Source: a virus. Taken from it: DNA of 64,000 bases. The stretch lies in the IMG/VR virus record IMGVR_UViG_3300027518_000008. One strand, given 5' to 3'. A program made the translations under genes and the position numbers. Numbering within the stretch: the stretch's first letter is position 1; every line of letters starts with the position of its first letter. Under the pieces are notes generated by a model. The model ran no database searches and was not told the DNA's origin. It worked only from the letters and a program-made list of their open reading frames with translations. Below, one piece after another: positions 2,657 to 41,364 of the stretch.

Positions 2657-5076
2657 GCGTCTTACCAGTAGGATTTGGTTCTGCGCTTGGCGGCTATCAG
2701 ATAGAGCGCAGTCTGCGGTTTAACTCTGCGGATAGTGCAAGATTAACTCGAACATTTGGAACGCCCACAAATCAAGAAAAATGGACTATGTCTATGTGGG
2801 TTAAAAGAAGTGGTTTGGGGATTAACACGGGGTTATTTGGCGCAGGAATCAGCGATTCAAATTTGGAAGTTTGGTTTGATACCAACAATAAATTATGTTT
2901 TAACGCCGCAACAAGCCCAGATAACAGGACAAAAATTACAACTCAGGTGTTTAGAGATTGTTCAGCTTGGTATCATTTAATTTGGGCATACGATACAAGC
3001 CTTCCATCTGATTCAAATAATAGCCCAACTGCTTTAAAAATTTATGTTAATAATTCTCTTATTACATCATTTTCCACTTTTGAATCTATTTCTTCTTATA
3101 CATTAGTTCCATTTAATTCAAATGGTGCTGTTGTAAATATCGGCAATCAAACTATAAGCAACTATTATTTCAGCGGCTATATGGCCGAGATTTATTTCAT
3201 TGACGGTCAAGCCCTAATACCATCCTCATTCGGCGAAACTGATTCTGCCACAGGTGTATGGAAGCCCAAGGCTTACTCTGGCACATACGGTACTAACGGC
3301 TTTTACCTCAACTTCTCAGACAACTCTGGCACGACATCCACAACGCTAGGCAAGGACAGTTCAGGCAATAGTAACAACTGGACACCTAACAACTTCTCGG
3401 TGACTGCGGGTGTTAACAATGACTCGCTAGTAGATTCACCTACGGCATACGGTACAGACACAGGCGTTGGTGGTGAGGTGCGTGGGAATTACTGTACTTG
3501 GAACCCTCTGGACAAACAAACAAGCGTCACCATAGCAAACGGGAACCTTGACGCAACCTATACTGGAACCACAGATGTCTATGGGTGTTTTTCCACTTTC
3601 TCAGTATCAAGTGGAAAATGGTATTGCGAGTTTACGGCAACTGGGCTTGGGGGTTCTGCTTATCCGCAGATTGGTATACGAAGAAGTAACAACTATGTTG
3701 CACAATATATTACAGAAACTTATGTAGACATAAAAGCTGGAACTTCTAATAATCGTGGTTCTGCTGGCCCAACATTTACGGCATTTATTGATAGTGATGT
3801 TTTGGGTATTGCGTTCAATGCTGATACTGGAGAGATATTCTTTTCCAAAAATGGTACTTGGTTAAATAGTGGAAACCCAGCCGCAGGAACGGGAGAATTC
3901 TTTTCTGGCTTAACTGATGGCCCATTTAAGTTTGGTATTGGTATGTACTCAAGCAGGACTGCCTTTGCCAACTTCGGTCAACGTGCCTTTGCCTACACAG
4001 CCCCCTCTGGCTTTAAGGCATTGTGTACAACTAATCTGCCTACGCCGACCATCGGTGCTACTAGCACTACACAGGCGAATGATTACTTTAATGCGGTAAC
4101 TTATACAGGTAATGGAACTAGCCTTAGCGTAACTGGTGTTGGCTTCCAGCCTGATTTAATCTGGATTAAAGACAGAAGCAATGCAAGGGCGCACGTTTTA
4201 CAAAATGCTATTGCTGGCTTTTCCCAATATCTACAATCTAATGCTACAGATGCAGAGACAACAGCATCTTCTGGCGTAACTGCGGTTGGGTCTGATGGAT
4301 TTACGGTTGGAACTCAGTTGGCATGGAATAGTAATACTGAAACCTATGTCGCATGGAACTGGAACGCTGGCGGCTCAACTGTAACCAACACTAGCGGCAC
4401 AATATCGGCACAGGTCAGGGCGAATACAACTAGCGGGTTCTCGATTGTTACTTATACGGGTAACGGAACAAACGGTGCAACTGTTGGTCATGGTCTTGGC
4501 ATTGCTCCATCTTTAATTTTTATCAAAAACCGTGGTGCAGTAGCATCTTGGCTTGTTTATAGCTCAAGCATTGGTGCGTCTAACTTTTTAGTTTTAAATA
4601 CCACAGATGCTTCTGCCGCTTCTGCGCTTCCTTTTAATAATACAGCGCCAACTTCGTCTGTATTTTCTTTGGGAACTTCTGGTGGTACAAATACAAATGG
4701 GGGAACTTTTGTAGCCTACTGCTTCGCACCAGTAGCGGGGTATAGCGCTTTTGGAAGTTACACGGGCAATGCAGCCGCTGACGGCCCATTTATCTACACG
4801 GGCTTTAGACCTAGGTTTGTTATTAGAAAATGCTCTAGCGCAACAAGCAACTGGTTTATAAATGATGCAGCAAGAAACCCTTCTAATGTTGTTTTATTAA
4901 GATTGAATGCTGACCTTTCTGATGCAGAAAGTTCTGGTGCTAATTCTGATATTGATTTTCTATCTAACGGATTCAAAATTAGAGCAACATCTACTGCGGG
5001 TGTAAATCAATCTGGACAAACACACATATATATGGCTTTTGCCGAGACTCCCGCAAAATTTTCGCTTGCCCGTTAG
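2653..5076 (+). CDS. ConA/LamG- and SPRY-like lectin-domain tail protein, copy 1
   Basis: SLRFNS...WTMSMWVKRS, WYHLIW, YFSGYMAEIYFIDG (LamG-like); GKWYCEF...GIAFNADTGEIFF (SPRY-like); overlaps fibre stop. Confidence 0.75.
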   Translation: MSVLPVGFGSALGGYQIERSLRFNSADSARLTRTFGTPTNQEKWTMSMWVKRSGLGINTGLFGAGISDSNLEVWFDTNNKLCFNAATSPDNRTKITTQVFRDCSAWYHLIWAYDTSLPSDSNNSPTALKIYVNNSLITSFSTFESISSYTLVPFNSNGAVVNIGNQTISNYYFSGYMAEIYFIDGQALIPSSFGETDSATGVWKPKAYSGTYGTNGFYLNFSDNSGTTSTTLGKDSSGNSNNWTPNNFSVTAGVNNDSLVDSPTAYGTDTGVGGEVRGNYCTWNPLDKQTSVTIANGNLDATYTGTTDVYGCFSTFSVSSGKWYCEFTATGLGGSAYPQIGIRRSNNYVAQYITETYVDIKAGTSNNRGSAGPTFTAFIDSDVLGIAFNADTGEIFFSKNGTWLNSGNPAAGTGEFFSGLTDGPFKFGIGMYSSRTAFANFGQRAFAYTAPSGFKALCTTNLPTPTIGATSTTQANDYFNAVTYTGNGTSLSVTGVGFQPDLIWIKDRSNARAHVLQNAIAGFSQYLQSNATDAETTASSGVTAVGSDGFTVGTQLAWNSNTETYVAWNWNAGGSTVTNTSGTISAQVRANTTSGFSIVTYTGNGTNGATVGHGLGIAPSLIFIKNRGAVASWLVYSSSIGASNFLVLNTTDASAASALPFNNTAPTSSVFSLGTSGGTNTNGGTFVAYCFAPVAGYSAFGSYTGNAAADGPFIYTGFRPRFVIRKCSSATSNWFINDAARNPSNVVLLRLNADLSDAESSGANSDIDFLSNGFKIRATSTAGVNQSGQTHIYMAFAETPAKFSLAR
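2689..3290 (+). repeat. 602-bp direct repeat, copy 1
   Basis: Starts GGCGGCTATCAG, ends CTGGCACATACGG; same text at 38962-39563 (offset 36273); two reading frames translate identically. Confidence 0.9.
3988..4097 (+). repeat. 110-bp direct repeat, copy 1
   Basis: TTTGCCTACACAGCC...TTTAATGCGGT also at 40279-40388. Confidence 0.85.
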
Positions 5077-5085
5077 GTAAACAAA

Positions 5086-5607
5086 ATGCCACAAGGAAGA
5101 TTCCATCAAGACCAAAGCGGGACAAAGATAAATATGCTAACTCTTTTGTTTCGAACCAATGAGCAATCTAAAAACGGAAGTTATAAATATATGACCCGTT
5201 GCGATTGCGGAACAGAAAAGATTGTTGCTTACAATCAAATGACCCGTGGTAGCACTAAGTCTTGTGGTTGCTTGCAATTCAGAAAAGGCGAAGATAGTCC
5301 GAACTTCAAACACGGTTTAGCGTTGAAATCGCACCCAGAATACAAGCGTTATCAGCGTGAGTGTTTTGACCGTCACCGCTATAACCTTGAGCCTCAACAC
5401 AAAGCCGCATTACTAGACGCACAAAACGGTGGTTGTGCTATCTGCGGGTACAAATTTGAGCAGAAAATAGGCGATATGAAAGTTGACCACAACCATTCAA
5501 CGGGCGAGGTCAGAGGTTTATTATGCGATTTATGCAATCGAGGGCTTGGTATGTTTAGGGACAATCAAGACAATCTGACCAAAGCAATATCTTATTTAGC
5601 GAGGTAA
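5086..5607 (+). CDS. Free-standing endonuclease VII-type HNH (homing) endonuclease
   Basis: CAICG...VDHNHSTGEVRGLLCDLCNRGLG; N-terminal CDCG...SCGC. Confidence 0.85.
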   Translation: MPQGRFHQDQSGTKINMLTLLFRTNEQSKNGSYKYMTRCDCGTEKIVAYNQMTRGSTKSCGCLQFRKGEDSPNFKHGLALKSHPEYKRYQRECFDRHRYNLEPQHKAALLDAQNGGCAICGYKFEQKIGDMKVDHNHSTGEVRGLLCDLCNRGLGMFRDNQDNLTKAISYLAR

Positions 5608-5610
5608 CAA

Positions 5611-6132
5611 ATGTTTCAACTCAATGGCAACCCAATCTCAATAGATTCTGAAGTAACCATCAATGGTATCCGCTACCCACACCTGCGTGACCCTGCTCTG
5701 CGTGAGCAACTAGGTATCGTAGAGGTAGCAGACCCAGAGCAGTATGACCAGCGTTTCTATTGGTCTCCTACATTGCCTAAGCTGCTTGATGACCGTGAAG
5801 AAGTAGACGAAGACGGTAATCCCATGTATGTCAAAGTCTTGGGTGTGGTCAACGGAGAACCTGCAATGGTTGACTCCACAGAGCGTCTGGTGACCAAAGG
5901 ACTCAAGAGCCAATGGACTTCTCAGGTTAAGCAGACTGCTGGTTCTATGCTTGCCCAAACTGACTGGATGGTAGTCCGCAAGGCAGAGCGCAATGTAGAC
6001 ATCCCCGCAACGGTGGTCGCAAAGCGTGCGGCGATTGTGGCTGAGTGCGACAGGCTAGAGGCTGCGATTGCGGCTTGCACGACTGTCGAGGCTCTGATTG
6101 CGGTAGTTGGCAACCAAGGATGGCCTGCATAA
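5611..6132 (+). CDS. Tail-fibre-associated (assembly/chaperone-like) protein, copy 1
   Basis: LAQTDWMVVR motif; follows fibre genes; close paralog at 42006-42527. Confidence 0.55.
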   Translation: MFQLNGNPISIDSEVTINGIRYPHLRDPALREQLGIVEVADPEQYDQRFYWSPTLPKLLDDREEVDEDGNPMYVKVLGVVNGEPAMVDSTERLVTKGLKSQWTSQVKQTAGSMLAQTDWMVVRKAERNVDIPATVVAKRAAIVAECDRLEAAIAACTTVEALIAVVGNQGWPA

Positions 6133-6293
6133 TGGCTACAATCGTAGAGGTCAAAGGCCAACTTGACACCCACGAAGCCGTCTGTGCCGAACGCTATCTT
6201 GGGATAAACGCTAGACTAAAGCGCCTAGAGCAAATCCTGATTGGCTCTGCTGGATTCATAATCGCCCTACTGCTAAGCCTAGTCGTTAAATGA
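6132..6293 (+). CDS. Small coiled-coil protein with C-terminal membrane anchor (53 aa), copy 1
   Basis: THEAVCAERY...RLKRLE then hydrophobic tail; paralog at 42527-42688. Confidence 0.7.
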   Translation: MATIVEVKGQLDTHEAVCAERYLGINARLKRLEQILIGSAGFIIALLLSLVVK

Positions 6294-6760
6294 CCACCAT
6301 CGCTGCCAGAGCGTCTACGGGAGAAATTGCCGCAGATTCGATGGTCAGCGGTGATGACTCCTTCTACCTCGTAGAGAAGCTCCGTAAGGGACAAGAGAGC
6401 ATCTACGGGGGTTGCGGAGATTGGGATAAACTATTAAAGTTCTACAATTCGTTGGAGTCTGGGGCAGACCTAGACTCGGATACGGATGTGACCGTTCTCG
6501 AACTCAGAAGTGATGGCATTTGGATTTACGAGAGTACCATCATTCCTGCGAAGATAAAGAACGACTTTTGGGCAATTGGAACTGGGGCAAACTTTGCTAT
6601 CGCTGCCATGCACTTAGGCTTAACTCCGGCAGAAGCAGTAAAGCTGGCGTGTCTGTACGACACATCCTCCCACGAGCCAATTGACGTAATGTCTCTAAGC
6701 GGGAGGAAGCGTGGTAGCACTAAAAAAGGTATCGGACGAGGAACTAATAGCGGCGTTTAA
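6290..6760 (+). CDS. Ntn-hydrolase (proteasome beta/HslV-like) peptidase, copy 1
   Basis: M-T-T-I-A start, IAADS, conserved Lys (EKL), AIGTG. Confidence 0.7.
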   Translation: MTTIAARASTGEIAADSMVSGDDSFYLVEKLRKGQESIYGGCGDWDKLLKFYNSLESGADLDSDTDVTVLELRSDGIWIYESTIIPAKIKNDFWAIGTGANFAIAAMHLGLTPAEAVKLACLYDTSSHEPIDVMSLSGRKRGSTKKGIGRGTNSGV

Positions 6761-7649
6761 GACCTACGGGAGTCCACAGAAGGTCTCTCAGGTTCTAGGC
6801 ATAGACGTAGGAACGGTTTACCGAAGGCGGTCGGCACTAAAAGACGTATCCCTGCCCTCCTTTGCCGCAAGACAGCACAGCATCGCCAACACATACATCC
6901 CCGATAACCGTAGGGTTATCTCCCACACCGTAGATAACGGTCATGTCTTTATAGCCTCGGACTGCCACTACTGGCCTGGCGAGGAAACCGTAGCACACAA
7001 GGCGTTTGTTTCCCTGCTGACAGAATTTAAGCCCAAGACCATCATCCTAAACGGGGATGTGTTTGACGGGGCTAGAATCAGCCGCCACGCCGCCCTCATG
7101 GGTACTAACCCCCCTACCCCAAAGCAAGAGATAGAAGCCTGCCAAGACCGTCTACACGAGATTGCAAACGCTTCTAAGAACGCTACTAAGCTTTTCACCT
7201 ACGGTAACCATGACGTAAGGTTGTTTAATTACATTGCAACCCACGCCCCAGAGTTATCTGAGTTCAGCGACTTGTTTTCGTACTTTCCAGGTTGGCATAC
7301 GGGGTGGCGGGTGGACATAAACAACTCTGTTGTGGTCAAGCATCGGTGGCACAACGGGCAACACGCGACATATAACAACGCCCTGAAGTCTGGCAGAAGT
7401 ATCGTCACAGGACACCTGCATAAACTGATGGTTACCCCGTGGACGGACTACAATGGGCGCAGATACGGTGTAGACACAGGAACGCTTGCGGAGCCAGGTG
7501 GCGACCAATTTGTGTATGTAGAAGAAAACCCCGTGAACTGGTGTTCTGGGTTCTGCGTTCTGACATTTAAGAATGGTATGTTATTACCACCAGAGTTATG
7601 CGAAGTAATAAACGGCGTGGCTTACTTTCGAGGAGAGAAAGTGGGATAA
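6711..7649 (+). CDS. Calcineurin-like metallophosphoesterase with N-terminal HTH-like segment, copy 1
   Basis: SDCH, NGDVFD, GNHD, GHLH motifs. Confidence 0.85.
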   Translation: MVALKKVSDEELIAAFKTYGSPQKVSQVLGIDVGTVYRRRSALKDVSLPSFAARQHSIANTYIPDNRRVISHTVDNGHVFIASDCHYWPGEETVAHKAFVSLLTEFKPKTIILNGDVFDGARISRHAALMGTNPPTPKQEIEACQDRLHEIANASKNATKLFTYGNHDVRLFNYIATHAPELSEFSDLFSYFPGWHTGWRVDINNSVVVKHRWHNGQHATYNNALKSGRSIVTGHLHKLMVTPWTDYNGRRYGVDTGTLAEPGGDQFVYVEENPVNWCSGFCVLTFKNGMLLPPELCEVINGVAYFRGEKVG

Positions 7650-8099
7650 ATGAGTGATTTAGTAGCCTCGGCAAAGAGTGCCGCGCAGGGAATAAAAAGC
7701 GCGATAGCCGCAGGGAAAGAGATTGAAGCAGTAGTCAACGATATTCAAAAACTTGGGGTCGCAGAACTCCAAGCCAAGCAACAGTTCCAAAAAAAGCAAC
7801 GGGTAGTTAAGGGCGATACCACCATCCTCACAGCCTTTGCGGAGTGGCGCAGACTTAAAGAAATCAAGGAAGCCGAGGACGACTTATTCCAGCAGCTTGT
7901 TGAGCGTTACGGCAAGGACAAGGCTGAGTTTGAGTGGAAGGACATCCAAGCCATCAAAGAGCGCCAGATAAAGGAAGTCAAGGACGGGCGTGACGAGATG
8001 GGGCGTGACCTAAAGAAACTCCGAGAACTCAAGGTTATGTGCTTCATAGCCTCGCTAATCATAGTCACCACTTACTACATCTTCAAAGGACACCTGTAA
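7650..8099 (+). CDS. Coiled-coil protein with C-terminal TM segment, copy 1
   Basis: ORF; near-identical paralog at 44049-44498. Confidence 0.7.
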   Translation: MSDLVASAKSAAQGIKSAIAAGKEIEAVVNDIQKLGVAELQAKQQFQKKQRVVKGDTTILTAFAEWRRLKEIKEAEDDLFQQLVERYGKDKAEFEWKDIQAIKERQIKEVKDGRDEMGRDLKKLRELKVMCFIASLIIVTTYYIFKGHL

Positions 8100-8602
8100 T
8101 GCTATCCCTAATATCTTCCGCTATTGGCTTTTTTGCCTCTGGTCTACCTCAAGTACTAAATTTCTTCCAAGACAAGGCTGACAAGGCGCAAGAGTTGAAG
8201 TTAGCGCAGATGCAGACCGAGCGCGAGTTAGCCCTTGCAGAACGCGGTTTCCTAGCCCAACAAAGGGTCGAGGAGATTAGGACTGACCAGATTGCCCTTC
8301 AGACCGACGCAGACCGCCAGAACGCCGCTTTAGACCACGACAAGGCTATCATGGCTCGCGCCTCTAGTTGGGTCGTGAACTTGAACGGCATAGTTCGCCC
8401 TGCGGTCACCTTTATCTTTGTCTTAGAGTTGGTGCTAATTAACATGGGGCTGACTTACTTCTTGCTAAAGGGCGGTCTTGGAGACATGAGCGTGGAGCAG
8501 TTTATCGCCGCCACAGACGTAATCTTCTCCGAAGACGAGATGGCCCTGCTCTCTGGGATTATTGCTTTCTGGTTCGGGAGCCGCCAATGGGGTAAGAAGT
8601 GA
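8099..8602 (+). CDS. Putative holin (multi-TM), copy 1
   Basis: Hydrophobic segments, VRPAVT and FWFGSR motifs, directly before lysozyme; start moved to ATG overlapping previous stop. Confidence 0.65.
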   Translation: MLSLISSAIGFFASGLPQVLNFFQDKADKAQELKLAQMQTERELALAERGFLAQQRVEEIRTDQIALQTDADRQNAALDHDKAIMARASSWVVNLNGIVRPAVTFIFVLELVLINMGLTYFLLKGGLGDMSVEQFIAATDVIFSEDEMALLSGIIAFWFGSRQWGKK

Positions 8603-9078
8603 AAGTCAGCAAGGAAGCAATAGAGGGGATTAAGAAAGACGAGGGGGTAAGGACAAAACCTTACCGCTGCCCAGCCCTGCTGTGGACTGTTGGGGTTGGA
8701 CACGTTATCGACCAGAACCACATAAGGGTAAAGTTTGATGACCGCAAAAATCTACCAATTCCCGACGGATGGGACAGAGTTCTTAGCATGGCAGAAGTTG
8801 ATGCTATCTTGGCTCAGGACTTGGCTACATTCGAACGAGGTGTTCTGCGCCTCTGTCCAGGTGGACTTACTCAAGGCCGCTTTGACGCTCTGGTTTCCTT
8901 CTCCTTCAACGTCGGGCTTGGCAACCTCCAAAGGTCAACCATCCGCATGAAGCACAATCGTGGAGACTTTGAGGGCGCGGCAGAGTCCTTCATGGCGTGG
9001 ACTAAAGCGGGCGGGAAAGAACTGCCTGGCTTAGTTAAACGTCGGAAGCACGAACGCGCTCTCTATGAATCTGAGTAA
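8599..9078 (+). CDS. Endolysin, GH24 lysozyme, copy 1
   Basis: EG...YRCPA..WTVGVGH, FDALVSFSFNVG, GLVKRR..E. Confidence 0.92.
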   Translation: MKVSKEAIEGIKKDEGVRTKPYRCPALLWTVGVGHVIDQNHIRVKFDDRKNLPIPDGWDRVLSMAEVDAILAQDLATFERGVLRLCPGGLTQGRFDALVSFSFNVGLGNLQRSTIRMKHNRGDFEGAAESFMAWTKAGGKELPGLVKRRKHERALYESE

Positions 9079-9376
9079 TTCTTTCCTTTAGTTCCTCGGC
9101 TATTGTCAAATTGTGCTTGGCCTCAAACTGGTCAAGCCACTTCCTCCTCGCCTCCCTTGTTGGGAGCGTCAACACATACCTTGCCAGCCCTTCTATCTTC
9201 GCCTCATGTTCGCTCATCACGATTTGATAGAACTCCTCTTTGGTGGCGGTAAAGGTTCCTCTGTTAACCAGCCCTAGCAAATGTTTTATGCAACGCTTTT
9301 CTGGCGGTGGTGACGGCTCTGATTGCGTCAGATTTTCGAACAAATCTCCCAAGATAATACCTCTTATAGTTGGCAC
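9035..9376 (-). CDS. Hypothetical protein (true start uncertain, probably shorter)
   Basis: ORF converging on lysozyme; 5' part overlaps the HNH gene. Confidence 0.45.
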   Translation of the reverse strand: MPTIRGIILGDLFENLTQSEPSPPPEKRCIKHLLGLVNRGTFTATKEEFYQIVMSEHEAKIEGLARYVLTLPTREARRKWLDQFEAKHNLTIAEELKERITQIHRERVRASDV

Positions 9377-9725
9377 AAACGTGTGCCTCGTAAAACTTTT
9401 CCTTCCTCTTGTAGACCCCTTTCACATTAGACTTGGTTTTCTCCCGCAACTTGGAGTTCCACCTGTTTTCCATCTGCGTGGCAACTCTGAGATTGCTTAG
9501 TCTATTGTCGGCAAACTTGCAGTTCTTGTGGTCAACGGTCTCAGGCCACCACCCGTGGTGATAAGCCCAGATAATCCTGTGAGCAAAGTAAGGCTTTTTG
9601 AATATAGCAATTTTGCGATAACCGCGAGGGGTTATGTGTCCTGCGATTGTGTTGGCGTACCTAGCGTTCCACATGACATACGCGGAATACTTGGCGAAAG
9701 CCTCAATGGGTCGAGGCTTCCACAC
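9264..9725 (-). CDS. HNH homing endonuclease with AP2-like C-terminal domain
   Basis: AHRIIW...VDHKN...DNRLSNLR; KGVY...YLGRF. Confidence 0.85.
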   Translation of the reverse strand: MWKPRPIEAFAKYSAYVMWNARYANTIAGHITPRGYRKIAIFKKPYFAHRIIWAYHHGWWPETVDHKNCKFADNRLSNLRVATQMENRWNSKLREKTKSNVKGVYKRKEKFYEAHVCANYKRYYLGRFVRKSDAIRAVTTARKALHKTFARAG

Positions 9726-9772
9726 AAGTTCCCCTTTCCTGTAAACAAACAGGGCGCGTAGCTGTTGCTTGC

Positions 9773-10000
9773 TTAGAATGGAATGTCGTCCTCTAAGGCT
9801 TGTTGCTTTGGCTCTGCCTTGGGCTTGGGTAGTTCAACCTTGAGACTCATAAACTTCTGCCCAGACTTGCCTGTTTTAATCCATGCGGCTAGGTTGTACT
9901 CAGTCCCGTCTACGTTTAACTTGCCCTTGTAGGCAGGAGCCTTCTCGTTGTCCGACTCGTTCTTAAACAACACACCGCTATTGGTATTATCGTATTCCAT
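9773..10000 (-). CDS. Small ssDNA-binding-like protein
   Basis: GVLFKN...PAYKGK...AAW, acidic DDIPF tail; analogue at 53957-54256. Confidence 0.6.
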   Translation of the reverse strand: MEYDNTNSGVLFKNESDNEKAPAYKGKLNVDGTEYNLAAWIKTGKSGQKFMSLKVELPKPKAEPKQQALEDDIPF

Positions 10001-10008
10001 AACTTCTC

Positions 10009-10152
10009 CTATTTGGCTGCTATATAAAGACCAACATTGCCAAGGCTATAACCCAAGAAGGCTACGCCCAGACCCACCTTACCCTCTAGTAGCAACTGCA
10101 CCGCTACCACAAGGTATACAACACCGATTCCGGCTATTAACCACGCCGCCAC
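10009..10152 (-). CDS. Small two-TM membrane protein (47 aa)
   Basis: GTG start, MAAWLIAGIG...FLGY; homolog at 50623-50769. Confidence 0.65.
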   Translation of the reverse strand: MAAWLIAGIGVVYLVVAVQLLLEGKVGLGVAFLGYSLGNVGLYIAAK

Positions 10153-10250
10153 TCTGTCCACCCCGCTAGAACAATCACCCCCAGCATAAACAACACAAAC
10201 CACGCCGCGTCCTGCGCGTAGAGGTGTGCAGATATAAGTCCGTCTTTCAT
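10137..10250 (-). CDS. Small membrane peptide (37 aa)
   Basis: Hand translation MKDGLISAHLYAQDAAWFVLFMLGVIVLAGWTEWRRG; homolog at 50525-50638. Confidence 0.65.
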   Translation of the reverse strand: MKDGLISAHLYAQDAAWFVLFMLGVIVLAGWTEWRRG

Positions 10251-10396
10251 TCTTCGTCCTCCGTGTTCATTAGTAATTGATACTTAATCACCTCTAAAAC
10301 CCCCACCACCGAGGCTAGAGGTAGTGCCTCGTCAAACTTCTCCACAGCCCCCACAATCTCTTGGTAGAGGGCTTCTATCATCACCTGCTGACTCAA
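10247..10396 (-). CDS. Hypothetical protein (49 aa)
   Basis: Hand translation MSQQVMIEALYQEIVG...; start and stop overlap neighbours. Confidence 0.5.
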   Translation of the reverse strand: MSQQVMIEALYQEIVGAVEKFDEALPLASVVGVLEVIKYQLLMNTEDEE

Positions 10397-10587
10397 CCCC
10401 GCATCTCCTGGGCCAAAGTCTTAAATCCCCAATCCTCTGCCATCCTCGCGCACCGCAACATCTCCTCCTCGCGCACAATATCCGCAAACCTCTGCAACTG
10501 GGTACGAGAGTCCTCGTGGAAGTTGAACAATATCTCGCCCTCCTTCAAGAACAATCCCGCTTCTACCGCTAGGTCGTCAATCGTCAC
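10393..10587 (-). CDS. Hypothetical protein
   Basis: ORF in tightly coupled operon. Confidence 0.55.
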   Translation of the reverse strand: MTIDDLAVEAGLFLKEGEILFNFHEDSRTQLQRFADIVREEEMLRCARMAEDWGFKTLAQEMRG

Positions 10588-11182
10588 ACTCAGCCTCCAC
10601 TTCCTTTAGAAATAACTGCACCTTTTCTAACATCTCGTCCATGTCCTTTTGCTCCGGCTCAAACCGCACGATAAAGAGCATCTTGCTCACCGGAAGCCTA
10701 GAGTCGAAGCTTACAAAGTCGCACCACTTCCTACCCGTACAGGCTAGTTGGAGCATCATCTGGTTTTTATACTTTGTGGGAACCTTGCCCGCCTTCCTGT
10801 ATTGCAGGTGCGTAGCCGTGTTCGGATTCTTAATCTCTACTAGACCATCCTCCCCAACAAGCCCGTCAGGAGAGGCTCCTAGCCATTGTATTGTCGGGTG
10901 GGGTACGAAGCCTACTTGGTCTACGAAAACGCCCGTGTGAGCCTCGTATGCGGCTCTGGCGATGGGTTCCTGCTCGGTTCCGCGAATCATAGCCGCGTTG
11001 GGCGCAAAACCCGCCTGTGGGGTCTTGGTAAGTCTTTCGGCTACGAGCTGCCAGAGGTAGTTCTTGCGGGTCTCTGTGTCCTTACCCGCTAAAGCGTCGC
11101 TAACCCTGCTGGCCGTTACAAACCCCAACCTCGCTAGTAGCCATTCCTCTGTGCCCTGGACTATTTCTTTGTAATCGGTCAT
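10577..11182 (-). CDS. YqaJ/lambda-exonuclease family recombination exonuclease
   Basis: QGTEEWL..R.G.VTAS, GASPDG, EIKNP, Y..QM..Q. Confidence 0.92.
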   Translation of the reverse strand: MTDYKEIVQGTEEWLLARLGFVTASRVSDALAGKDTETRKNYLWQLVAERLTKTPQAGFAPNAAMIRGTEQEPIARAAYEAHTGVFVDQVGFVPHPTIQWLGASPDGLVGEDGLVEIKNPNTATHLQYRKAGKVPTKYKNQMMLQLACTGRKWCDFVSFDSRLPVSKMLFIVRFEPEQKDMDEMLEKVQLFLKEVEAECDD

Positions 11183-11519
11183 TGAGCCTCCTTTTGGCTA
11201 TGTGTAGTTCTGCCTCTAACTTATCCGTACTCATCCGCAACCTTTGGGCTACATTGTGGCTCAAGTTATACGGGTACTGGATATATCTTGCCTTCAAAAC
11301 CCTGCGCGATATATCAGGTAATTCCCTAACCGCGTCCTCCACCATCTGCCCGTCAATCATGTCGGGTTCTATTCTCGGTTCTTCTCCTTCAAAGACATCC
11401 TCGGACTCGTAGTTGCCCTCTGCGCTCGCACATTGGGTACGGTGTTCTGGGCCAACATGACCCCAAGCACAATAAAACGCCCAGTTCCGAAGACGGTCTT
11501 CGCTAATCATATTGTGCAT
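11100..11519 (-). CDS. Antiterminator Q-like / late transcription regulator
   Basis: RLRNWA N-term, V..AV..LP...R.VL..RY and C-terminal HTH-like segment. Confidence 0.5.
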   Translation of the reverse strand: MHNMISEDRLRNWAFYCAWGHVGPEHRTQCASAEGNYESEDVFEGEEPRIEPDMIDGQMVEDAVRELPDISRRVLKARYIQYPYNLSHNVAQRLRMSTDKLEAELHIAKRRLNDRLQRNSPGHRGMATSEVGVCNGQQG

Positions 11520-14359: not shown

Positions 14360-14463
14360 TGTTCGTTTTTGATTCGTAACCAAACCAAGACTTCTTCCCA
14401 GCTCAACGGGGTTTCCAAAAAGTCAGGTTCCCGTAGTCCAAACAACGAATAATCTATCTTCAT
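14356..14463 (-). CDS. Hypothetical protein (35 aa)
   Basis: Hand translation; overlaps ninB stop and methyltransferase start. Confidence 0.45.
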   Translation of the reverse strand: MKIDYSLFGLREPDFLETPLSWEEVLVWLRIKNEQ

Positions 14464-15217: not shown

Positions 15218-15253
15218 CTCCTCGTGGCGTATTGTAATCGGTTATGTAACATT

Positions 15254-16010: not shown

Positions 16011-16011
16011 T

Positions 16012-35241: not shown

Positions 35242-36495
35242 ATGCTGAACATTACCAATCCGTATGCGGGACTTTTGAGTTCCGAAGAAGAAAAGAAACT
35301 TGGGCAACAAGCGCAAACAATGGGCTTGCTTAACCTCGCCTCCGCTTTGTTCTCCGCTGGTGCGCCATCTCCTGTTCGGCAGGGACTTGGTACTGCTTTT
35401 GCACAAGGTTTGCCAGCATATATGCAAGGCGTGCAAGGAACGTACGAGCAGGGAATAAACGCCATGCTTACGCGTGAAAAGATTCAGGAAATGCAGAGAA
35501 AGCGCAACGAAGAAGAACAAATTCGCAAACTTGCACCACAGTTATTTCAAACAACCCGCGCACCAGCCCAAACAATTTATGACGTAGAGGGTGAGACAAC
35601 TATTCCCGGAGCTGTTACAGGTGTTCGGGTAAACCGTGAACTTTTGCCCGCGCTTGGCGCTCTTGGCCCAGCCGGTATGCAATACGCAACACAGATTTCG
35701 GAATTTTCAAAGTCACTTCAACCCAAAACTAGCGTTCAAAGCATATTTAACGACAAAGGGCAAGAAGTTAAGGTTCGATACAACGAAGAAACCGGCGAGT
35801 ATTCCCCAATTGGGGGCGCAAAAGCTGAATCGTTAGTTCAAATTGACCTCGGTAATATGGTTGAATTAAGAACTCCGACGGGCGCTGTTGTTGGAAGAAT
35901 AGCAAAAGGCGCAGCACCAAAAGGCCCGTCTTTCTCTTTCAACGAATCAACTGGGTTGGTAATTGACCAGAATACTGGAGCCGTTTCACAACCAAGAGAC
36001 ACACAAGGAAACTTGGTTGATATTAGCCAATTTAGAAAACCGTCGGAATCTCAAGAGAAACAAGTTATTGGCGTACAAAATACTAGAAACGCCATTGGCG
36101 AGTTTAGAAATGAATTGTCTAACTTTACACGTTTAGACACTCTCAAGCCAACAGAACGCGCTCGCATTGAAACAAAGTATCGGAATATGCTAATGCAAGC
36201 CAAAGAAGCCTACAATTTGGGTGTTTTAAACGGCCCAGACTTGGCAATTTTAGAACAAATTATTTATAACCCAACATCAATGAAGGGCGTTGTTGTAGGG
36301 AAAGAAGCTATTGACGCTCAAGCCTCTGAACTTGACAGAATTATGGGGAATATAAAATCCACAGTTCAAGCAAGAGGGGGCGCGGTTCCGCAAACCACAA
36401 GTGTAATTTCTAAAACAGCACCTCCTGGCGTTCGTCAAGAACTGTGGGACATTATGTCACCGGAGAGTAAAAAATTATGGTCAACCCAGAAATGA
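35242..36495 (+). CDS. DNA ejection/transfer protein
   Basis: GAGG RBS; YAGLLSSEEE N-term; YNLGVLNGPD. Confidence 0.6.
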   Translation: MLNITNPYAGLLSSEEEKKLGQQAQTMGLLNLASALFSAGAPSPVRQGLGTAFAQGLPAYMQGVQGTYEQGINAMLTREKIQEMQRKRNEEEQIRKLAPQLFQTTRAPAQTIYDVEGETTIPGAVTGVRVNRELLPALGALGPAGMQYATQISEFSKSLQPKTSVQSIFNDKGQEVKVRYNEETGEYSPIGGAKAESLVQIDLGNMVELRTPTGAVVGRIAKGAAPKGPSFSFNESTGLVIDQNTGAVSQPRDTQGNLVDISQFRKPSESQEKQVIGVQNTRNAIGEFRNELSNFTRLDTLKPTERARIETKYRNMLMQAKEAYNLGVLNGPDLAILEQIIYNPTSMKGVVVGKEAIDAQASELDRIMGNIKSTVQARGGAVPQTTSVISKTAPPGVRQELWDIMSPESKKLWSTQK

Positions 36496-38153
36496 ATTTA
36501 GAGCAACAACGTGCGCTTGCGCTTGCTGAGGCCGAATTAAAACTTCGTCAACAGTCACAACCGAAGCAAGAAACAAGTTTTGGTCAGGATGTTATGCGAG
36601 GCTTTCGAGACCCAATTGATGCAGCCGCGCAACTTTTACCACGGTTTTTGGAAGTTGTTACATCTGCTGGCGGGACTTTGCCAAACGAAGTATCTGATTG
36701 GTTTGCCAAAGAATCTAATCGGGTAGATGCGCTAAACAAATCTGTTGAACAACAGTATCGTGCAGCCGGTGGAGAAGATATTAGCGCCGGTCGGTTTATT
36801 GGAAACATTGTTAGTCCAGCAAGCATTGTTCCTGCCGCTCGCGCTGGTCAGTTAGTAAGTAGCGGATTGCAGGTTGGTCGGCAAGCTGTTCGTGGCGCAG
36901 GGTTTGGCCCAACGGCTACTGCGGCAACAGTTGGAGCTGTTGGCGGCGCATTAACGCCAGTATCTGATACGGAAAAATTTGCCGAGTCTAAACTTTTGCA
37001 AACAGGATTAGGCGCGGCTCTTGGCCCAGTAGCAGAAAAGGTAGTTGGTGTTGTGTCCCCAAGAATTACCGAAAGCGCCCAAAAACTTCGTGAAGCGGGA
37101 ATTTCAAACCTTACGCCAGGTCAGGCGTTTGGTGGGATTACACAAAAAATAGAACAGGCCGCAGAAAGCGTTCCGTTAGTTGGCGATGTTATTGCTGGCG
37201 CAAGAATGAGGAACATTGAAGAATTTAGTAGAACCGCAATTAACCAATCCTTAAAAAATATTGACGCAGAGTTGCCAAGAGGTTTGTCTGGTAACGCGGC
37301 AATTAAGTTTGCAGAAGACAAGATTGGGAAGGCGTACAATCAAATTGTTCCAAAGTTATCAGTATCATCGGACACAGTATTAACTTATGCCGGAGAGTCA
37401 CCCGTAACGCTAATCAACAATATTGACAATATTGTGGCTGGCGCTTCTGCAAATCTTGATGACAAAGCAGCGTCGCAACTATCTAAGATTATTGAAAGCA
37501 ACTTAACCAATAAATTTAAAAACAATGTTCTTTCTGGCAAGGACTTAAAAACGGCAGAAAGCGCATTAGGAAACTTTGCCGTTCGGTTTAAAAAAGCGCA
37601 AGACCCAAACCAAAATTTAATGGGCGACGCATTGTTTGATGTGCAACTTACTTTGCGTCAAGCAGTAGAAGAAGCCAATCCAGATTACAAGGGGCAGTTG
37701 CAAAAAATTAACGCTGCGTTTGCAGACTTTATTCGAGTTCAACGCGCCGCAGCTTCAACAGGAGCAAAAGAAGGGGTATTTACACCGGCACAATTAAGTG
37801 CCGCCGCCAAAGCCACGGACATTTCTAAACGTAAAGGTGCGTTTGCACGCGGTGAGGCAAGGATGCAGGATATTGCACAAGCCGGAGAACAAGTTTTAGG
37901 TTCTAAATTGCCCGATTCTGGAACACCGTATCGACTAGGTGTTGGGGCTGCCGGATTGGGCGCGTTGGGCGGTATTGACCCGTTGGCTGCCGCTTTAGGC
38001 GCTGGAACGATGGCTGCATATACACAACCTGGGATTCGTGCTTTGTCTGCGTTGTTATATGAGAGGCCAGAAGTTCTTCGTAGAATCGGAGAACCACTTC
38101 GTCGCACCGCACCATTTGTAACACCAGGATTGCTCGGCCCATTTCAAGAATAA
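36492..38153 (+). CDS. DNA ejection/transfer protein
   Basis: Gly/Ala-rich helices, LPDSGT, ends PGLLGPFQE. Confidence 0.65.
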   Translation: MNLEQQRALALAEAELKLRQQSQPKQETSFGQDVMRGFRDPIDAAAQLLPRFLEVVTSAGGTLPNEVSDWFAKESNRVDALNKSVEQQYRAAGGEDISAGRFIGNIVSPASIVPAARAGQLVSSGLQVGRQAVRGAGFGPTATAATVGAVGGALTPVSDTEKFAESKLLQTGLGAALGPVAEKVVGVVSPRITESAQKLREAGISNLTPGQAFGGITQKIEQAAESVPLVGDVIAGARMRNIEEFSRTAINQSLKNIDAELPRGLSGNAAIKFAEDKIGKAYNQIVPKLSVSSDTVLTYAGESPVTLINNIDNIVAGASANLDDKAASQLSKIIESNLTNKFKNNVLSGKDLKTAESALGNFAVRFKKAQDPNQNLMGDALFDVQLTLRQAVEEANPDYKGQLQKINAAFADFIRVQRAAASTGAKEGVFTPAQLSAAAKATDISKRKGAFARGEARMQDIAQAGEQVLGSKLPDSGTPYRLGVGAAGLGALGGIDPLAAALGAGTMAAYTQPGIRALSALLYERPEVLRRIGEPLRRTAPFVTPGLLGPFQE

Positions 38154-38167
38154 TCAGGAGTAATTAA

Positions 38168-38929
38168 ATGCCTAAAACCAAGATTTCAGAATACTCAACG
38201 ACCAACTCCTCTAACACAGACATAGAAAGCATTAATATCGACGAGGGCTGTGCGCCCTCTGGGATAAACAATGCTATCCGTGAGCTGATGGTTCACCTAA
38301 AGGAGTTCCAGACAGGCTCATCTGGTGACCCTCTGACGGTCGCTGGCGGGATGTTCATATCTGGGGGTGGGTCGGCTAACACCTTGACCGTGACGGGGAT
38401 TCTGACGGCTTCTGGGGGCACGATTCTGTCCTCTACGAACACCTTGTCCGGCTCCAACATCATTTCTGGCAATATCAACTCGTCGGGAACCACAAATACG
38501 TTCTCTGGCGGCAACATCCTGTCGGGTATGAATACGATTTCCGGGTCTGCGATTATCTCTGGGAACATCAACTCTAGCGGGACAAACACCTTCTCGGGGA
38601 CGCAGGTTATCTCTGGTGGGTCTACCTTCTCAGGCGCAGCCAAGGGAACCCTGGTAACGGACAACGACGGCAGCTTTGACATGACCGCAGGAAACAACTT
38701 CACCTGTACGCCTACGGGAACGATTACGCTTACATTTACTAACATAACTAGCGGACAATCGGGTAACATTCTGCTAGTAAATGGTAGCAATTACACGGTA
38801 TCTGCCCACGCCAACACGAAGGTTGGAACTGGCGTGCTTACGGCACTATCGGCTACTGGGACGTACTGGGTAAGTTACTTCTCTAACGGAACCAATGTTT
38901 ACATATCTGCGACAGGCGCGTTAGCATGA
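38168..38929 (+). CDS. Short tail fibre/adaptor protein
   Basis: I.INI.EGCAPSGINNAIRE N-term, 6-aa NTxSG repeats, C-terminal domain shared with 932-2656. Confidence 0.72.
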   Translation: MPKTKISEYSTTNSSNTDIESINIDEGCAPSGINNAIRELMVHLKEFQTGSSGDPLTVAGGMFISGGGSANTLTVTGILTASGGTILSSTNTLSGSNIISGNINSSGTTNTFSGGNILSGMNTISGSAIISGNINSSGTNTFSGTQVISGGSTFSGAAKGTLVTDNDGSFDMTAGNNFTCTPTGTITLTFTNITSGQSGNILLVNGSNYTVSAHANTKVGTGVLTALSATGTYWVSYFSNGTNVYISATGALA

Positions 38930-41364
38930 GCATAATTCAAGGCAATGCACATACCTCTGCGGGCGGCTATCAGATAGAGCGCAGTCTGCGGTTTAACTCT
39001 GCGGATAGTGCAAGATTAACTCGAACATTTGGAACGCCCACAAATCAAGAAAAATGGACTATGTCTATGTGGGTTAAAAGAAGTGGTTTGGGGATTAACA
39101 CGGGGTTATTTGGCGCAGGAATCAGCGATTCAAATTTGGAAGTTTGGTTTGATACCAACAATAAATTATGTTTTAACGCCGCAACAAGCCCAGATAACAG
39201 GACAAAAATTACAACTCAGGTGTTTAGAGATTGTTCAGCTTGGTATCATTTAATTTGGGCATACGATACAAGCCTTCCATCTGATTCAAATAATAGCCCA
39301 ACTGCTTTAAAAATTTATGTTAATAATTCTCTTATTACATCATTTTCCACTTTTGAATCTATTTCTTCTTATACATTAGTTCCATTTAATTCAAATGGTG
39401 CTGTTGTAAATATCGGCAATCAAACTATAAGCAACTATTATTTCAGCGGCTATATGGCCGAGATTTATTTCATTGACGGTCAAGCCCTAATACCATCCTC
39501 ATTCGGCGAAACTGATTCTGCCACAGGTGTATGGAAGCCCAAGGCTTACTCTGGCACATACGGCACTAACGGGTTCTACCTAAAGTTTGCAGACAACTCT
39601 GGCACGACCAGCACAACGCTAGGCAAGGACAGCTCAAGCAACGGTAACAACTGGACACCTAATAACTTCTCGGTGACCGCTGGTGCTGGCAATGACTCCT
39701 TAGTAGATTCACCTACGCCATACGGCACAGACACAGGTGTTGGTGGTGAGGTGCGTGGGAATTATGGAACATGGAACCCACTAGCAAAAGGAAGTAATAC
39801 AACCCTTTCAAATGGAAACCTAAATGTTTTAGGAAGCACTAATAGCACAGGAAACAACAACTTTTCAACTTTTATACCATCAAGCGAAAAATGGTATTTT
39901 GAAGTAAGTCCTGCTAATACATATTCATATTCATATGTTGGTGTAAGTTTAGATGGTAACTTGTCAACATCTAGTAATTTTGTTGGTGCTACGGCAAGTA
40001 GCGTAGGAATTGAACTTGGGACAGGGGCTGTTTGGAGAAACAATTCAAATCAAGGCACTGGTGGAACAGGGGTTAGTGCTGGAGAAACTTTGATGGTTGC
40101 GTTTGAACCGTCAAGCGGAAAAGTGTGGGCGGGTAGAAACGGTACTTGGTATAACTCAGGAAACCCTGCGGCTGGAACAGGACAAGTAGCAACTATTCCT
40201 ACTGTTGGGGCTATCGGGCCAGCCGTTTCTCCATATTCTAGTAGCGGTACGCTTTCTTTCAACTTTGGTCAACGTGCATTTGCCTACACAGCCCCCTCTG
40301 GCTTTAAGGCATTGTGTACAACTAATCTGCCTACGCCGACCATCGGTGCTACTAGCACTACACAGGCGAATGATTACTTTAATGCGGTGTTGTGGACTGG
40401 CAATGACACAGACAGAAGTATTACTGGTGTTGGGTTCCAACCTGACTTTACTTGGCTAAAAGTACGGAACACAACAGGTAACAATGTTTTATTTGACTCT
40501 GTTCGTGGTGCGCTAAAAGAACTTTATTCAAATACAACAGGGGCAGAATCAACAGAAACAAACGGATTAGATTACTGGGAGTCTGATGGCTTCCACATTA
40601 AAGCTTCTAGGTGGAACGCTTCACCAAACACCTATGTTGCATGGAACTGGAACGCTGGCGGCTCTAACGCTACCAACACCTCTGGCACTATAACCAGCAC
40701 AGTCAGGGCGAATACGACTAGCGGGTTCTCGATTGCAACCTACACTGGCAACGGCTCTGGTGGCGCTACGGTGGGTCACGGGCTTGGAGTAAGTCCGGCG
40801 ATGATTTTTATTAAGTCCAGAAGCAACTCAACAAACTGGATGGTTTGGCATCAAAATCTAACCGCCAACTACGCTTTTGAAGGACTAAATACAACCGGAG
40901 CAGAAGTCAACGGGGGTTCGCCTTCTAAATATGTTCGTTCAGTTTCTTCAACTCTTGTGACAATTGGTAACGACATATCTGTAAACCAAAGTGCTTCTTA
41001 TACTTATGTTATGTACTGCTTCGCCGCAGTAGCGGGGTATAGCGCCTTTGGAAGTTACACAGGTAATGGTTCTACGGATGGGGTGTTTGTGTACACGGGC
41101 TTTCGCCCTAGGTATGTGATGACCAAACGTACTGACTCAACAAGCAATTGGGTTATACAAGACACGGCAAGAGACACATACAATGCAACAAATAATGCTT
41201 TGTTTGCAAACTTAAGTCTGGCAGATAACACAGGCCCGTGGTTTGACATACTTTCAAATGGATTCAAAGTAAGAAATAACGGAAGCGACACAAACGCAAG
41301 TAGTGGAACCTACATTTATATGGCCTTTGCCGAGGTGCCCATGAAATATAGTTTGGGACGCTGA
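38926..41364 (+). CDS. ConA/LamG- and SPRY-like lectin-domain tail protein, copy 2
   Basis: First ~200 aa identical to copy 1; diverged SPRY-like and distal blocks. Confidence 0.75.
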   Translation: MSIIQGNAHTSAGGYQIERSLRFNSADSARLTRTFGTPTNQEKWTMSMWVKRSGLGINTGLFGAGISDSNLEVWFDTNNKLCFNAATSPDNRTKITTQVFRDCSAWYHLIWAYDTSLPSDSNNSPTALKIYVNNSLITSFSTFESISSYTLVPFNSNGAVVNIGNQTISNYYFSGYMAEIYFIDGQALIPSSFGETDSATGVWKPKAYSGTYGTNGFYLKFADNSGTTSTTLGKDSSSNGNNWTPNNFSVTAGAGNDSLVDSPTPYGTDTGVGGEVRGNYGTWNPLAKGSNTTLSNGNLNVLGSTNSTGNNNFSTFIPSSEKWYFEVSPANTYSYSYVGVSLDGNLSTSSNFVGATASSVGIELGTGAVWRNNSNQGTGGTGVSAGETLMVAFEPSSGKVWAGRNGTWYNSGNPAAGTGQVATIPTVGAIGPAVSPYSSSGTLSFNFGQRAFAYTAPSGFKALCTTNLPTPTIGATSTTQANDYFNAVLWTGNDTDRSITGVGFQPDFTWLKVRNTTGNNVLFDSVRGALKELYSNTTGAESTETNGLDYWESDGFHIKASRWNASPNTYVAWNWNAGGSNATNTSGTITSTVRANTTSGFSIATYTGNGSGGATVGHGLGVSPAMIFIKSRSNSTNWMVWHQNLTANYAFEGLNTTGAEVNGGSPSKYVRSVSSTLVTIGNDISVNQSASYTYVMYCFAAVAGYSAFGSYTGNGSTDGVFVYTGFRPRYVMTKRTDSTSNWVIQDTARDTYNATNNALFANLSLADNTGPWFDILSNGFKVRNNGSDTNASSGTYIYMAFAEVPMKYSLGR
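38962..39563 (+). repeat. 602-bp direct repeat, copy 2
   Basis: Matches 2689-3290. Confidence 0.9.
40279..40388 (+). repeat. 110-bp direct repeat, copy 2
   Basis: Matches 3988-4097. Confidence 0.85.

Follow-up and report, generated by a model that had tools for sequence, protein, structure and literature searches.

A 602-bp repeat and the joining of two complete phage genomes in one metagenomic record

Introduction

The window, by which we mean the whole 64,000-nt stretch of viral DNA analysed here, carries two full phage gene sets, one of which is enclosed by the two copies of an exact 602-bp repeat. This raises the question as to whether the two phages, hereafter A and B, were linked in a single molecule or were brought together by an assembler. 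If the join were real, it would offer a rare direct view of unrelated phages swapping host-range modules, and a true cointegrate would have caught module exchange between a T7-type phage and an SU10/P22-type one at an intermediate stage. A fused record would enter catalogues as a single 70-kb virus whose structural genes are duplicated, and it would distort analyses of genome size, clustering and host prediction.

Two phage genomes and their shared late module

The repeat, R, occurs on the + strand at 2689..3290 and 38962..39563; its copies lie 36,273 bp apart from start to start, and sequence comparison finds their identity exact over 602 bp without extension on either side. The initial annotation had described this repeat correctly, as well as the two full gene sets, exactly one of which, that of phage B, lies between the copies. 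Phage B thus corresponds to 2689..38961 (36,273 bp). Downstream of R, its copy of a late module (copy 1; 3291..9078, + strand) encodes the remainder of the fibre lectin (SPRY and DUF7483), followed by an Endonuclease_7/HNH protein, a 173-aa protein, an HslV-like peptidase, a metallophosphoesterase, a 149-aa protein, a phrog_6637 protein and the endolysin (8599-9078, +). The rest of the genome (9079..38961) runs in both directions, with leftward early genes for two HNH proteins, a YqaJ exonuclease, a C5 methyltransferase and NinB, and rightward genes for Sak, a 588-aa PBECR5 protein, TerL (22281), an SU10/P22-type portal (23553), a scaffold (26236), an SU10-type capsid (27196), an SU10 adaptor, ejection-type proteins and a 253-aa fibre adaptor (38168-38929). 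SU10_adaptor and Gp80 appear in the annotations of phage B contigs, and the capsid matches SU10_MCP at 8.9e-97. The label "P22-like" first given to phage B is loose: the portal does match P22_portal (5e-9), but the match to SU10_portal is far stronger (1.4e-230). With its SU10 families and its Sak/YqaJ lambdoid early region, phage B belongs among the Venkman-like phages with an SU10/P22-type head.

Phage A amounts to about 34,819 bp, made up of 39564..64000, 7,092 bp outside the window, 1..2688 and R. The segment 1..2688 (A-left, + strand) is the end of its tail operon, with PHROG tail fibre and tail protein matches; it encodes the C-terminus of a 1029-aa virion protein (1-918, +) and a 574-aa tail fibre/adaptor (932-2656, +), the last ~95 residues of which are homologous to the C-terminus of the 253-aa protein of phage B. 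An independent contig (L001) connects A-left upstream to 62024-64000 through the 7,092 bp absent from the window. Downstream of the second repeat copy, phage A has its own late module (copy 2; 39564..45474, + strand), with the gene order of copy 1 at ~74% nucleotide identity, and an endolysin at 44998-45474 (+). Its early and head genes occupy 45475..64000 in both directions: leftward are a 292-aa candidate annealing protein, a YqaJ/RecE-like exonuclease and a 227-aa resolvase-type serine recombinase; rightward are RusA, a replication initiator, TerL (54689), a T7-type portal (58295; Head-tail_con, 5.7e-96), a scaffold-like protein, the capsid (61205) and tail tube genes. The tail tube genes run off the end of the window at 64000. 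The designation "T7-type" holds for the virion genes and not beyond them, as neither an RNA nor a DNA polymerase is found among the scanned phage A ORFs. With its T7-like portal, capsid, tail fibre and nozzle, its lack of polymerases, its divergent YqaJ/annealing-protein/resolvase arm and an inferred size of ~35 kb, phage A is of the type of the Methylophilales podophage MEP301. The recombination systems proposed at first, Sak/YqaJ and a RecT/YqaJ-like pair, were borne out in phage B, where Sak and YqaJ are confirmed; in phage A, the YqaJ match is marginal and the supposed RecT, the 292-aa protein, matches nothing in Pfam or PHROG and has an Atlas lead to Rad52/RecT-like clusters, nothing more. 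A and B are each a complete genome of the same lambdoid layout, ending in its own fibre-lectin-to-endolysin module.

R is embedded in the homologous part of the two late modules (2384-9078 versus 38657-45474, ~6.7 kb, from fibre lectin to endolysin), which share ~74% identity outside R and contain further exact tracts of 110 bp (3988/40279), 87 bp (6095/42490) and 54 bp (5604/41999). Homology in the flanks reaches only ~55-89% per 100 bp, so the identity of R is not due to chance. The repeat is low in GC and encodes fibre-lectin residues 13-213, that is, a Laminin_G_3/ConA-like domain (Pfam Laminin_G_3 match at residues 39-183). Copy 1 of the fibre gene has a TTG start. The gene is visibly polymorphic in the source samples: in run X1, the dominant B haplotype is A-like up to 3338 and B-like starting at 3339. 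The right end of the identical tract therefore varies in the population, and exchange at the R site is ongoing. R is a LamG-type cassette that either passed recently between the A and B lineages or reached both of them from a common donor.

An exact search with a 40-mer from the middle of R gave no match in JGI metagenome, IMG/VR or GTDB genome collections (the last comprising 185,579 species genomes), and an exact look-up of fibre copy 2 and the phage A portal found neither on record. Compared at near-identity with 50,697 phage records, the whole window matched only a methyltransferase fragment and a 39-nt stretch; there is thus no close reference.

Behaviour of independent assemblies at the repeat

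Independent contigs of the same samples come from three sources, JGI, MEGAHIT and Logan, and were built with k from 31 to 141, so that the 602-bp exact repeat exceeds k at both junctions. Twenty contigs in all reach R from the A or the B side (13 mapped on the window and seven more reported), and every one of the 13 mapped contigs that enter R from the left stops k or k-1 bases inside it. Nine independent A-left contigs stop 30-141 nt into R, with ends at 2718 (Logan, k=31), 2808/2811 (JGI) and 2829 (MEGAHIT, k=141); on the B side, ends lie at 38991, 39081 and 39102, and contigs L010, L011, L198-L201 and L285, 99.9-100% identical to the window, end 30-141 nt inside the second repeat copy. In none of the independent contigs is a left flank connected through R to a right flank. 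The sole contig that contains R whole is that of the B circle, and as it begins at the first base of R, it does not reveal the left flank that precedes it. This MEGAHIT contig (ENA ERZ27245853:k141_250639) measures 36,414 bp, that is, 36,273 + 141; its last 18,494 bp match 21182-2689 of the window at 100% and end exactly at the first base of R. Its form is that which MEGAHIT gives to a circular contig, in this case of B alone. The same sample also contains phage A separately, as a 33,286-bp contig ending at 2829. Phage A is recovered as 33.3-33.8-kb contigs that would close across R; the two components are thus recoverable as genomes of their own, and the B circle of 36,273 bp and the collinear A obtained on paper by looping out the segment between the repeats are reproduced in assemblies.

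The assignment of each late module to its genome is supported by contigs that run on into the early genes. Module 1 is joined to the early genes of B at 100% identity in L192 (2689-21182), X1 record 6 (6224-10422) and X3 record 23 (8878-18327), and the phosphoesterase of B-type IMG/VR relatives is 95-98% identical to copy 1 versus 72% to copy 2. Module 2 is joined to the early genes of A in L020 (40636-51996, 100%) and L021 (40269-47234). Since L013, L015, L192 and X1 record 6 run without a break rightward from 2689 or 3468, any crossover must lie within about 2689-3468, which contradicts the earlier proposal that it could extend through shorter identical tracts up to about 7360. A crossover just after the endolysins (9078 and 45474) was considered and rejected: independent contigs cross both positions at 100%, and the homology there is ~75%.

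For each of the eight A and B proteins looked up, the longest contig is one of 69,524 bp, which indicates that the contig carrying the B portal in the 50-200 kb bin is this same record. The record falls 1,568 bp below the loop of 71,092 bp, which makes it a linear traversal instead of a closed molecule. Non-source runs sharing 0.34-0.43 of the words of 36001-46000, and others with shares of 0.2-0.34, carry no weight as evidence.

Depth in three runs

Depths are Logan k-mer means per contig in the three source runs (SRR5691553, SRR5691554 and SRR5691555), whose phage population comprises several strain variants. In X1, A-left stands at 33, B contigs at 58.8-79.6 and R at 95; in X2, the corresponding values are 24.5, 17.4-23.4 and ~31; in X3, they are 37.8, 38-61 and 44. 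The A:B ratio is thus ~1:2 in X1, 1:1 in X2 and 1:1 to 1:1.6 in X3, the components being unequal in abundance across samples as far as k-mer means confounded by strain variants allow this to be read. In the comparison of depth inside and outside 2689-38961, suggested in the initial annotation as a check, the two are clearly unequal in X1 (33 versus 59-80) and about equal in X2. The depth of R itself can also be compared with that of its flanks. A pure cointegrate predicts R at twice A-left, namely 66, 49 and 76 in X1, X2 and X3, and this fails in all three runs; equal depth of A and B in every sample together with a doubled R, the signature of a real cointegrate, is not what was found. If R is instead the sum of A-left and B-left, the depth of B-left would be ~62 in X1, 7 in X2 and 6 in X3. 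These implied values fit the Logan contigs: X1 is the one run with the exact B adaptor gene in full, and in X2 and X3 the B-left contigs break off sooner.

Composition and gene order in relatives

The tetranucleotide CGCG is absent from all parts of A, including module 2 and the 7.1 kb in L001 (0 observed versus >100 expected), and frequent in phage B, with 104 sites between 7364 and 38917; composition thus matches a split into two circles. The CGCG-free interval 3291-7363 in B was considered as an import from A and set aside as unspecific, fibre regions of B-type relatives being also CGCG-poor. GATC is strongly depleted in both phages, which fits a shared host, and A and B probably infect the same methylotroph-type host.

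Among 159 IMG/VR loci, B-early genes follow B-structural ones in 24 and A-early genes follow A-structural ones in ten; in 23 further loci, A-early genes follow just the N-terminus of the A fibre. A crossed A-to-B or B-to-A adjacency occurs in none of the 34 loci that are informative on both sides, and in none of 80 metagenome loci around fibre homologues. Five ambiguous IMG/VR loci are accounted for by a Sak swap, an HNH cross-hit and the adaptor domain that both types possess. None of the relative contigs listed exceeds 37.1 kb, A-type contigs measuring 34.0-34.8 kb and B-type contigs 35.3-37.1 kb.

Origin of the join

The A-B linkage is most probably an assembly join of two separate co-occurring phage genomes at the shared R, a reading already present in the initial annotation and favoured by the contig breaks at R, the closure of B, the depths and the relatives. 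A-left and B-left both lead into one unbranched R unitig, and by sharing this exact 602-bp tract A and B would form a figure-8 graph; an assembler walking this graph would produce a linear 69.5-kb metagenomic contig, of which the window would be a part. The paths A-left to R to module 1 and B-left to R to module 2 would then reflect the choice of the assembler and not the dominant molecules, although the source assembler may have had paired-end support for the path it chose.

Rather than an assembler, a single crossover at R in a co-infected cell could have produced a real cointegrate or mixed concatemer, a 71-kb A-B molecule sampled in the cell fraction and formed by Sak/YqaJ or by the exonuclease and annealing-protein pair of A. 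The exact shared tract is real, its endpoint varies within the population, both phages have recombination genes that could make such a join on co-infection, their depths are about equal in X2, and their common GATC depletion fits a shared host. We nevertheless consider this origin improbable, and the findings speak against the earlier suggestion of a captured cointegrate: depths are not locked at 1:1 in X1 and X3, R is never twice A-left, no independent assembly contains the join, the arrangement is seen in 0 of the 34 informative relatives, and the 69,524-bp record is not closed relative to the 71,092-bp loop. Moreover, the implied B-left depth of ~6-7x in X2 and X3 limits any cointegrate to a small fraction of A. 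Headful packaging sets a further limit, as 71 kb should be too much for capsids that in cultured relatives contain 35-39 kb; a cointegrate could thus exist only transiently, inside the cell.

Tandem polylysogeny is widespread among bacteria, and A encodes a 227-aa resolvase-type recombinase, so that A might lie beside B in a host replicon, as tandem prophages or as a plasmid-prophage, with this serine recombinase acting in integration or resolution. Such an arrangement is very improbable: host DNA is nowhere to be found, the 7,092 bp that join the window ends are A tail genes and close the path on phage only, the gene scan finds no integrase of the tyrosine or large-serine type in either A or B, and the R 40-mer has no match in the GTDB species genomes. 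The authors of the MEP301 study judged the homologous resolvase-domain protein of that phage unlikely to be a functional integrase (PMC8024684). The identity of R could itself be an artefact, two similar fibre N-termini having been collapsed into one consensus used twice. Consensus collapse of near-identical strain variants happens in metagenome assembly, and the fibre gene is polymorphic in these samples; yet a diverged second version would give a branch inside R, whereas one k=31 Logan unitig in X1 covers 2692-3359 unbranched at a depth of 95, close to the sum of A and B. A-left and B-left contigs both overlap the first 30 nt of this unitig exactly, and the flank contigs of the MEGAHIT and JGI assemblies, whether they enter R from A-left or from B-left, concur over its first 120-141 nt, which makes a collapse very hard to credit.

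Once the join is attributed to assembly, what remains is most likely ordinary phage mosaicism, and the real biology is modest. It consists of a portable fibre-to-endolysin module common to A and B, two unrelated virion types, and of a LamG cassette exchanged so recently that its copies are still identical, the ends of the tract varying in the population.

Comparison with known systems

A and B are new phages of freshwater/subsurface origin, and their relatives are MEP301 and Venkman, phages of OM43/LD28 methylotrophs. Methylophilales phage MEP301 (MW452941, 34,774 bp; PMC8024684), whose portal is 75% identical to that of phage A, lies within 50 bp of the inferred A genome in size and shares its gene order: RusA, terminase, T7-type portal, capsid, tail tubes, internal proteins and tail fibre, followed by an SPRY lectin, lysis genes and the divergent exonuclease, annealing protein and resolvase-domain recombinase. 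As with A, MEP301 is reported to encode neither an RNA nor a DNA polymerase (PMC8024684). The two differ in GC content (~50% in A versus 40%), in habitat (subsurface or fresh water versus seawater), in the complete lack of CGCG in A, and in that the lysozyme-family endolysin and the unclassified 292-aa protein of A have as their counterparts in MEP301 an M15 peptidase and ERF.

By portal, the nearest cultured relative of phage B is Methylophilales phage Venkman EXVC282S (MT375522, 38,624 bp; 54% identity), while uncultured Manatee Spring genomes (MW202462) have a portal 63% identical to that of B; the circular Manatee Spring genome of 34,712 bp is a single genome, like MEP301 and Venkman. The Venkman group, including the related LD28 phage P19250A and Manatee Spring, has the same lambdoid layout as B, with Sak, YqaJ and methyltransferase, and a similar genome size (35-39 kb); with zero GATC, Venkman resembles B in this respect too. 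B differs in its GC content (~50% versus 32-34% in Venkman), in its tail tip and fibre genes, and in its LamG/SPRY/DUF7483 lectin module, which it shares with A-type phages.

The joined record behaves as do inter-genomic repeat chimeras of short-read metagenomes, in which otherwise unrelated paths meet at an exact repeat exceeding k in length, independent assemblers stop there, the loops close singly and the joined contig is the sum of two loops. R, however, is neither a mobile element nor rRNA; it is a recently exchanged receptor-binding cassette within a homologous module, which makes true recombination at R biologically plausible as well.

Modular exchange of tail-fibre genes is reportedly a classical occurrence between unrelated phages. 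The A/B module is larger than in classical exchange, extending from fibre through endolysin and including an HslV-like peptidase and a phosphoesterase, a difference that is in no way categorical. As in the classical cases, two virion architectures have in common a host-recognition module that brings its own adaptor domain, and patches of near-identity are embedded in diverged sequence.

Gene Organisation and the Shared Module

Scans against PHROG and Pfam resolve two complete phages of the same overall organisation, each ending in a module copy of its own, as the initial annotation had proposed from two full gene sets: phage A, with T7-type virion genes, and phage B, with an SU10/P22-type head. 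The end of a T7-type tail operon (1-2688), where the C-terminal part of a 1029-aa protein is followed by a 574-aa tail fibre, leads into module copy 1 (2653-9078), which encodes a LamG/SPRY/DUF7483 fibre lectin, Endonuclease_7, an unknown protein, an HslV-like peptidase, a metallophosphoesterase, two unknowns and an endolysin. There follow, on the reverse strand, HNH, YqaJ, HNH, C5 methyltransferase and NinB genes (9264-16320), and then those for Sak, TerL, SU10/P22-type portal, scaffold, SU10-type capsid, adaptor, ejection-type proteins and a 253-aa fibre adaptor (16766-38929). Module copy 2 (38926-45474) is succeeded by a 292-aa unknown, a YqaJ/RecE-like exonuclease and a resolvase-type recombinase on the reverse strand (45460-48110), and by RusA, replication initiator, TerL, T7-type portal (Head-tail_con), capsid and tail tube genes (48410-64000).

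Self-comparison and a MAFFT alignment place the homologous module, of about 6.7 kb, at 2384-9078 and 38657-45474, with an identity of about 74% overall and from about 17% to 97% per 100 bp. Its only long perfect tract is R, a direct repeat of 602 bp that is exact, as claimed, between 2689-3290 and 38962-39563, with zero extension at either end and a spacing of 36,273 bp; other exact tracts are shorter (110, 87 and 54 bp). R encodes a LamG-type domain.

Several side observations concern these genes. The last ~95-105 residues of the A 574-aa fibre (2384-2656) and of the B 253-aa protein (38657-38929) are homologous, residues 147-253 of the latter being 50-58% identical to A-type fibre C-termini by tblastn; this homology is consistent with a docking domain, common to both phages, that receives the separately encoded lectin. 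In fibre copy 2, about 250 bp (40385-40635) diverge beyond megablast recognition in the independent contigs L020, L022 and L023, with flanks 97-100% identical, and several contigs start at 40629/40636; the lectin is hypervariable over this stretch. The 173-aa Endonuclease_7 protein of module 1 (5086-5607) recurs in identical copies in other samples behind different fibre genes (L012, L014, L016, L017); in L012 the genes after it follow another phage order, with small ORFs preceding an SU10-type adaptor. Its gene seems to move together with the fibre gene or to home beside it. The HNH endonuclease gene at 11507-11995 is present or absent among variants (site 11488-11989): 502 bp at 11488-11989 are skipped, with 17 other letters instead, in a minor variant of run X2 (depth 5.9) and in freshwater run X4 (depth 49); a homing-endonuclease gene that is mobile would be expected to behave in this way. 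The 292-aa protein (45460-46338, minus strand), without a match in Pfam and PHROG searches, occupies the position of ERF in MEP301 and of Sak in relative L108, and an Atlas feature search leads to Rad52/RecT-like viral clusters; it is likely an unclassified single-strand annealing protein. Directly before the B terminase genes, a 588-aa protein (20168-21934) carries a PBECR5 domain (PF18814) according to contig annotations.

Independent Assemblies and Depth

JGI, ENA/MEGAHIT and Logan contigs of the same samples, retrieved by exact-protein look-ups, were mapped onto the window. Contigs entering R from the A tail end (A-left) all stop within it, at 30 nt (k=31), 120-123 nt (JGI) or 141 nt (k=141), and those entering from the B adaptor end (B-left) all stop at equivalent depths inside copy 2. 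Contig L001 connects 62024-64000 with 1-2829 by way of 7,092 bp that carry A tail genes, so that the whole A+B loop measures 71,092 bp (A 34,819 bp, B 36,273 bp). The source record is evidently the linear one of 69,524 bp, 1,568 bp short of this loop, which is the longest contig shared by all eight A and B proteins tested. The predicted loop-out into a B circle and a collinear A is reproduced for B by ENA contig k141_250639, whose length is 36,414 bp (36,273 + 141) and whose sequenced half matches 21182-2689 perfectly and ends at the first base of R. MEGAHIT gives a circular contig this form, here with B as its only content, and A is a separate 33,286-bp contig in that sample. A crossover at the joins of the modules with their right-hand genomes (9078, 45474) is ruled out, since independent contigs cross both at 100% identity.

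Logan contigs from three runs of one subsurface study (X1-X3) and one freshwater run (X4) were mapped to 1-20000 with per-contig k-mer depth. In X1, 2692-3359 is covered by one k=31 unitig that has no branch and whose depth is close to that of A and B combined, and A-left and B-left contigs both overlap its start; the repeat is real biology. Depths of A-left, B contigs and R are 33, 58.8-79.6 and 95 in X1, 24.5, 17.4-23.4 and about 31 in X2, and 37.8, 38-61 and 44 in X3, contig means from a strain-rich population that are indicative rather than decisive. Flow conservation (R = A-left + B-left) gives B-left depths of ~62, 7 and 6, respectively, in agreement with the Logan contigs, where the exact B adaptor gene is complete in X1 only and the B-left contigs of X2 and X3 break earlier.

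The sole haplotype mapped in X1 has copy-2 letters at 3291-3338 and copy-1 letters from 3339, so that the shared tract there is ~670 bp; the window's own 48 bp at 3291-3338 were not seen in the X1 Logan contigs. The endpoint of the identical tract is variable within the population, as one would expect if recombination or gene conversion has acted on this LamG cassette more than once. In the distant relatives L014 and X4 the edges of R are conserved and its middle is replaced, and R looks like a cassette with conserved linkers on both sides. Judged by the X1 haplotype, the right edge of the tract (3291-3359; 39564-39632) differs between populations. At the left edge (2689-2695), R is entered in X2 from at least three upstream sequences (B-left, one variant of it, and a third type), and the unrelated run X4 has an upstream sequence resembling the third type; R is thus shared beyond A and B.

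Composition and Relatives

CGCG is absent from all A parts (~34.8 kb), including module 2 and the 7.1 kb of L001, against more than 100 sites expected; it is plentiful in A-type relatives, and B has 104 sites (7364-38917). Exactly those parts that lack CGCG make up the inferred A circle, a compositional argument for this circle as the unit under selection. B, four close IMG/VR relatives and phage Venkman have no GATC, and A has 13 sites against ~105 expected; this common avoidance is compatible with a common host. A C5 methyltransferase gene (12950-14383) is present in B and none in A.

Relatives of the two fibre adaptors number in the hundreds in IMG/VR. Classification of 159 loci by tblastn with the window proteins places B-structural before B-early genes in 24, A-structural before A-early genes in 10 and an A-fibre N-terminus before A-early genes in a further 23; none of these is crossed. 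Nor was a crossed context present around fibre homologues in a scan of JGI metagenome contigs. Module type 1 is the one present in B relatives, where the phosphoesterase is 95-98% identical to copy 1 versus 72% to copy 2. Among the IMG/VR contigs listed, none exceeds 37.1 kb (A-type 34.0-34.8 kb, B-type 35.3-37.1 kb).

Origin of the Joined Record

The data are read most economically as two separate genomes, A and B, whose record was joined via R: they would be co-occurring phages sharing a recently exchanged 602-bp cassette, and the assembler would have passed twice through R, perhaps favoured where A and B coverage is similar, as in X2. Of the two origins first offered, assembler crossing or captured cointegrate, the former is thus preferred. 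A pure cointegrate predicts equal A and B depths and R at twice A, which fails in X1, X2 and X3, and none of the 34 loci informative for both sides is crossed. A minor population of true A-B cointegrates or mixed concatemers is unlikely; with genomes of 35-39 kb in cultured relatives as a guide, neither capsid would be able to package 71 kb, and such a molecule could exist only transiently inside the cell. That R is a collapsed, non-identical repeat is highly improbable, and tandem prophages are more improbable still. The nested arrangement or cointegrate most probably does not exist as such.

The real features are two new phages of known kinds, one of MEP301 type (A) and one Venkman-like with an SU10-type head (B), and between them a mosaicism of tail-fibre modules of the classical type. 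Among cultured or complete genomes, the nearest ones each represent a single phage of similar size. Methylophilales phage MEP301 (34,774 bp), reported as assembled into one circular contig and without RNA or DNA polymerase (PMC8024684), has the same architecture as A and a portal 75% identical to that of A; the portals of Methylophilales phage Venkman (38,624 bp) and of a Manatee Spring circular genome (34,712 bp) are 54% and 63% identical, respectively, to that of B.
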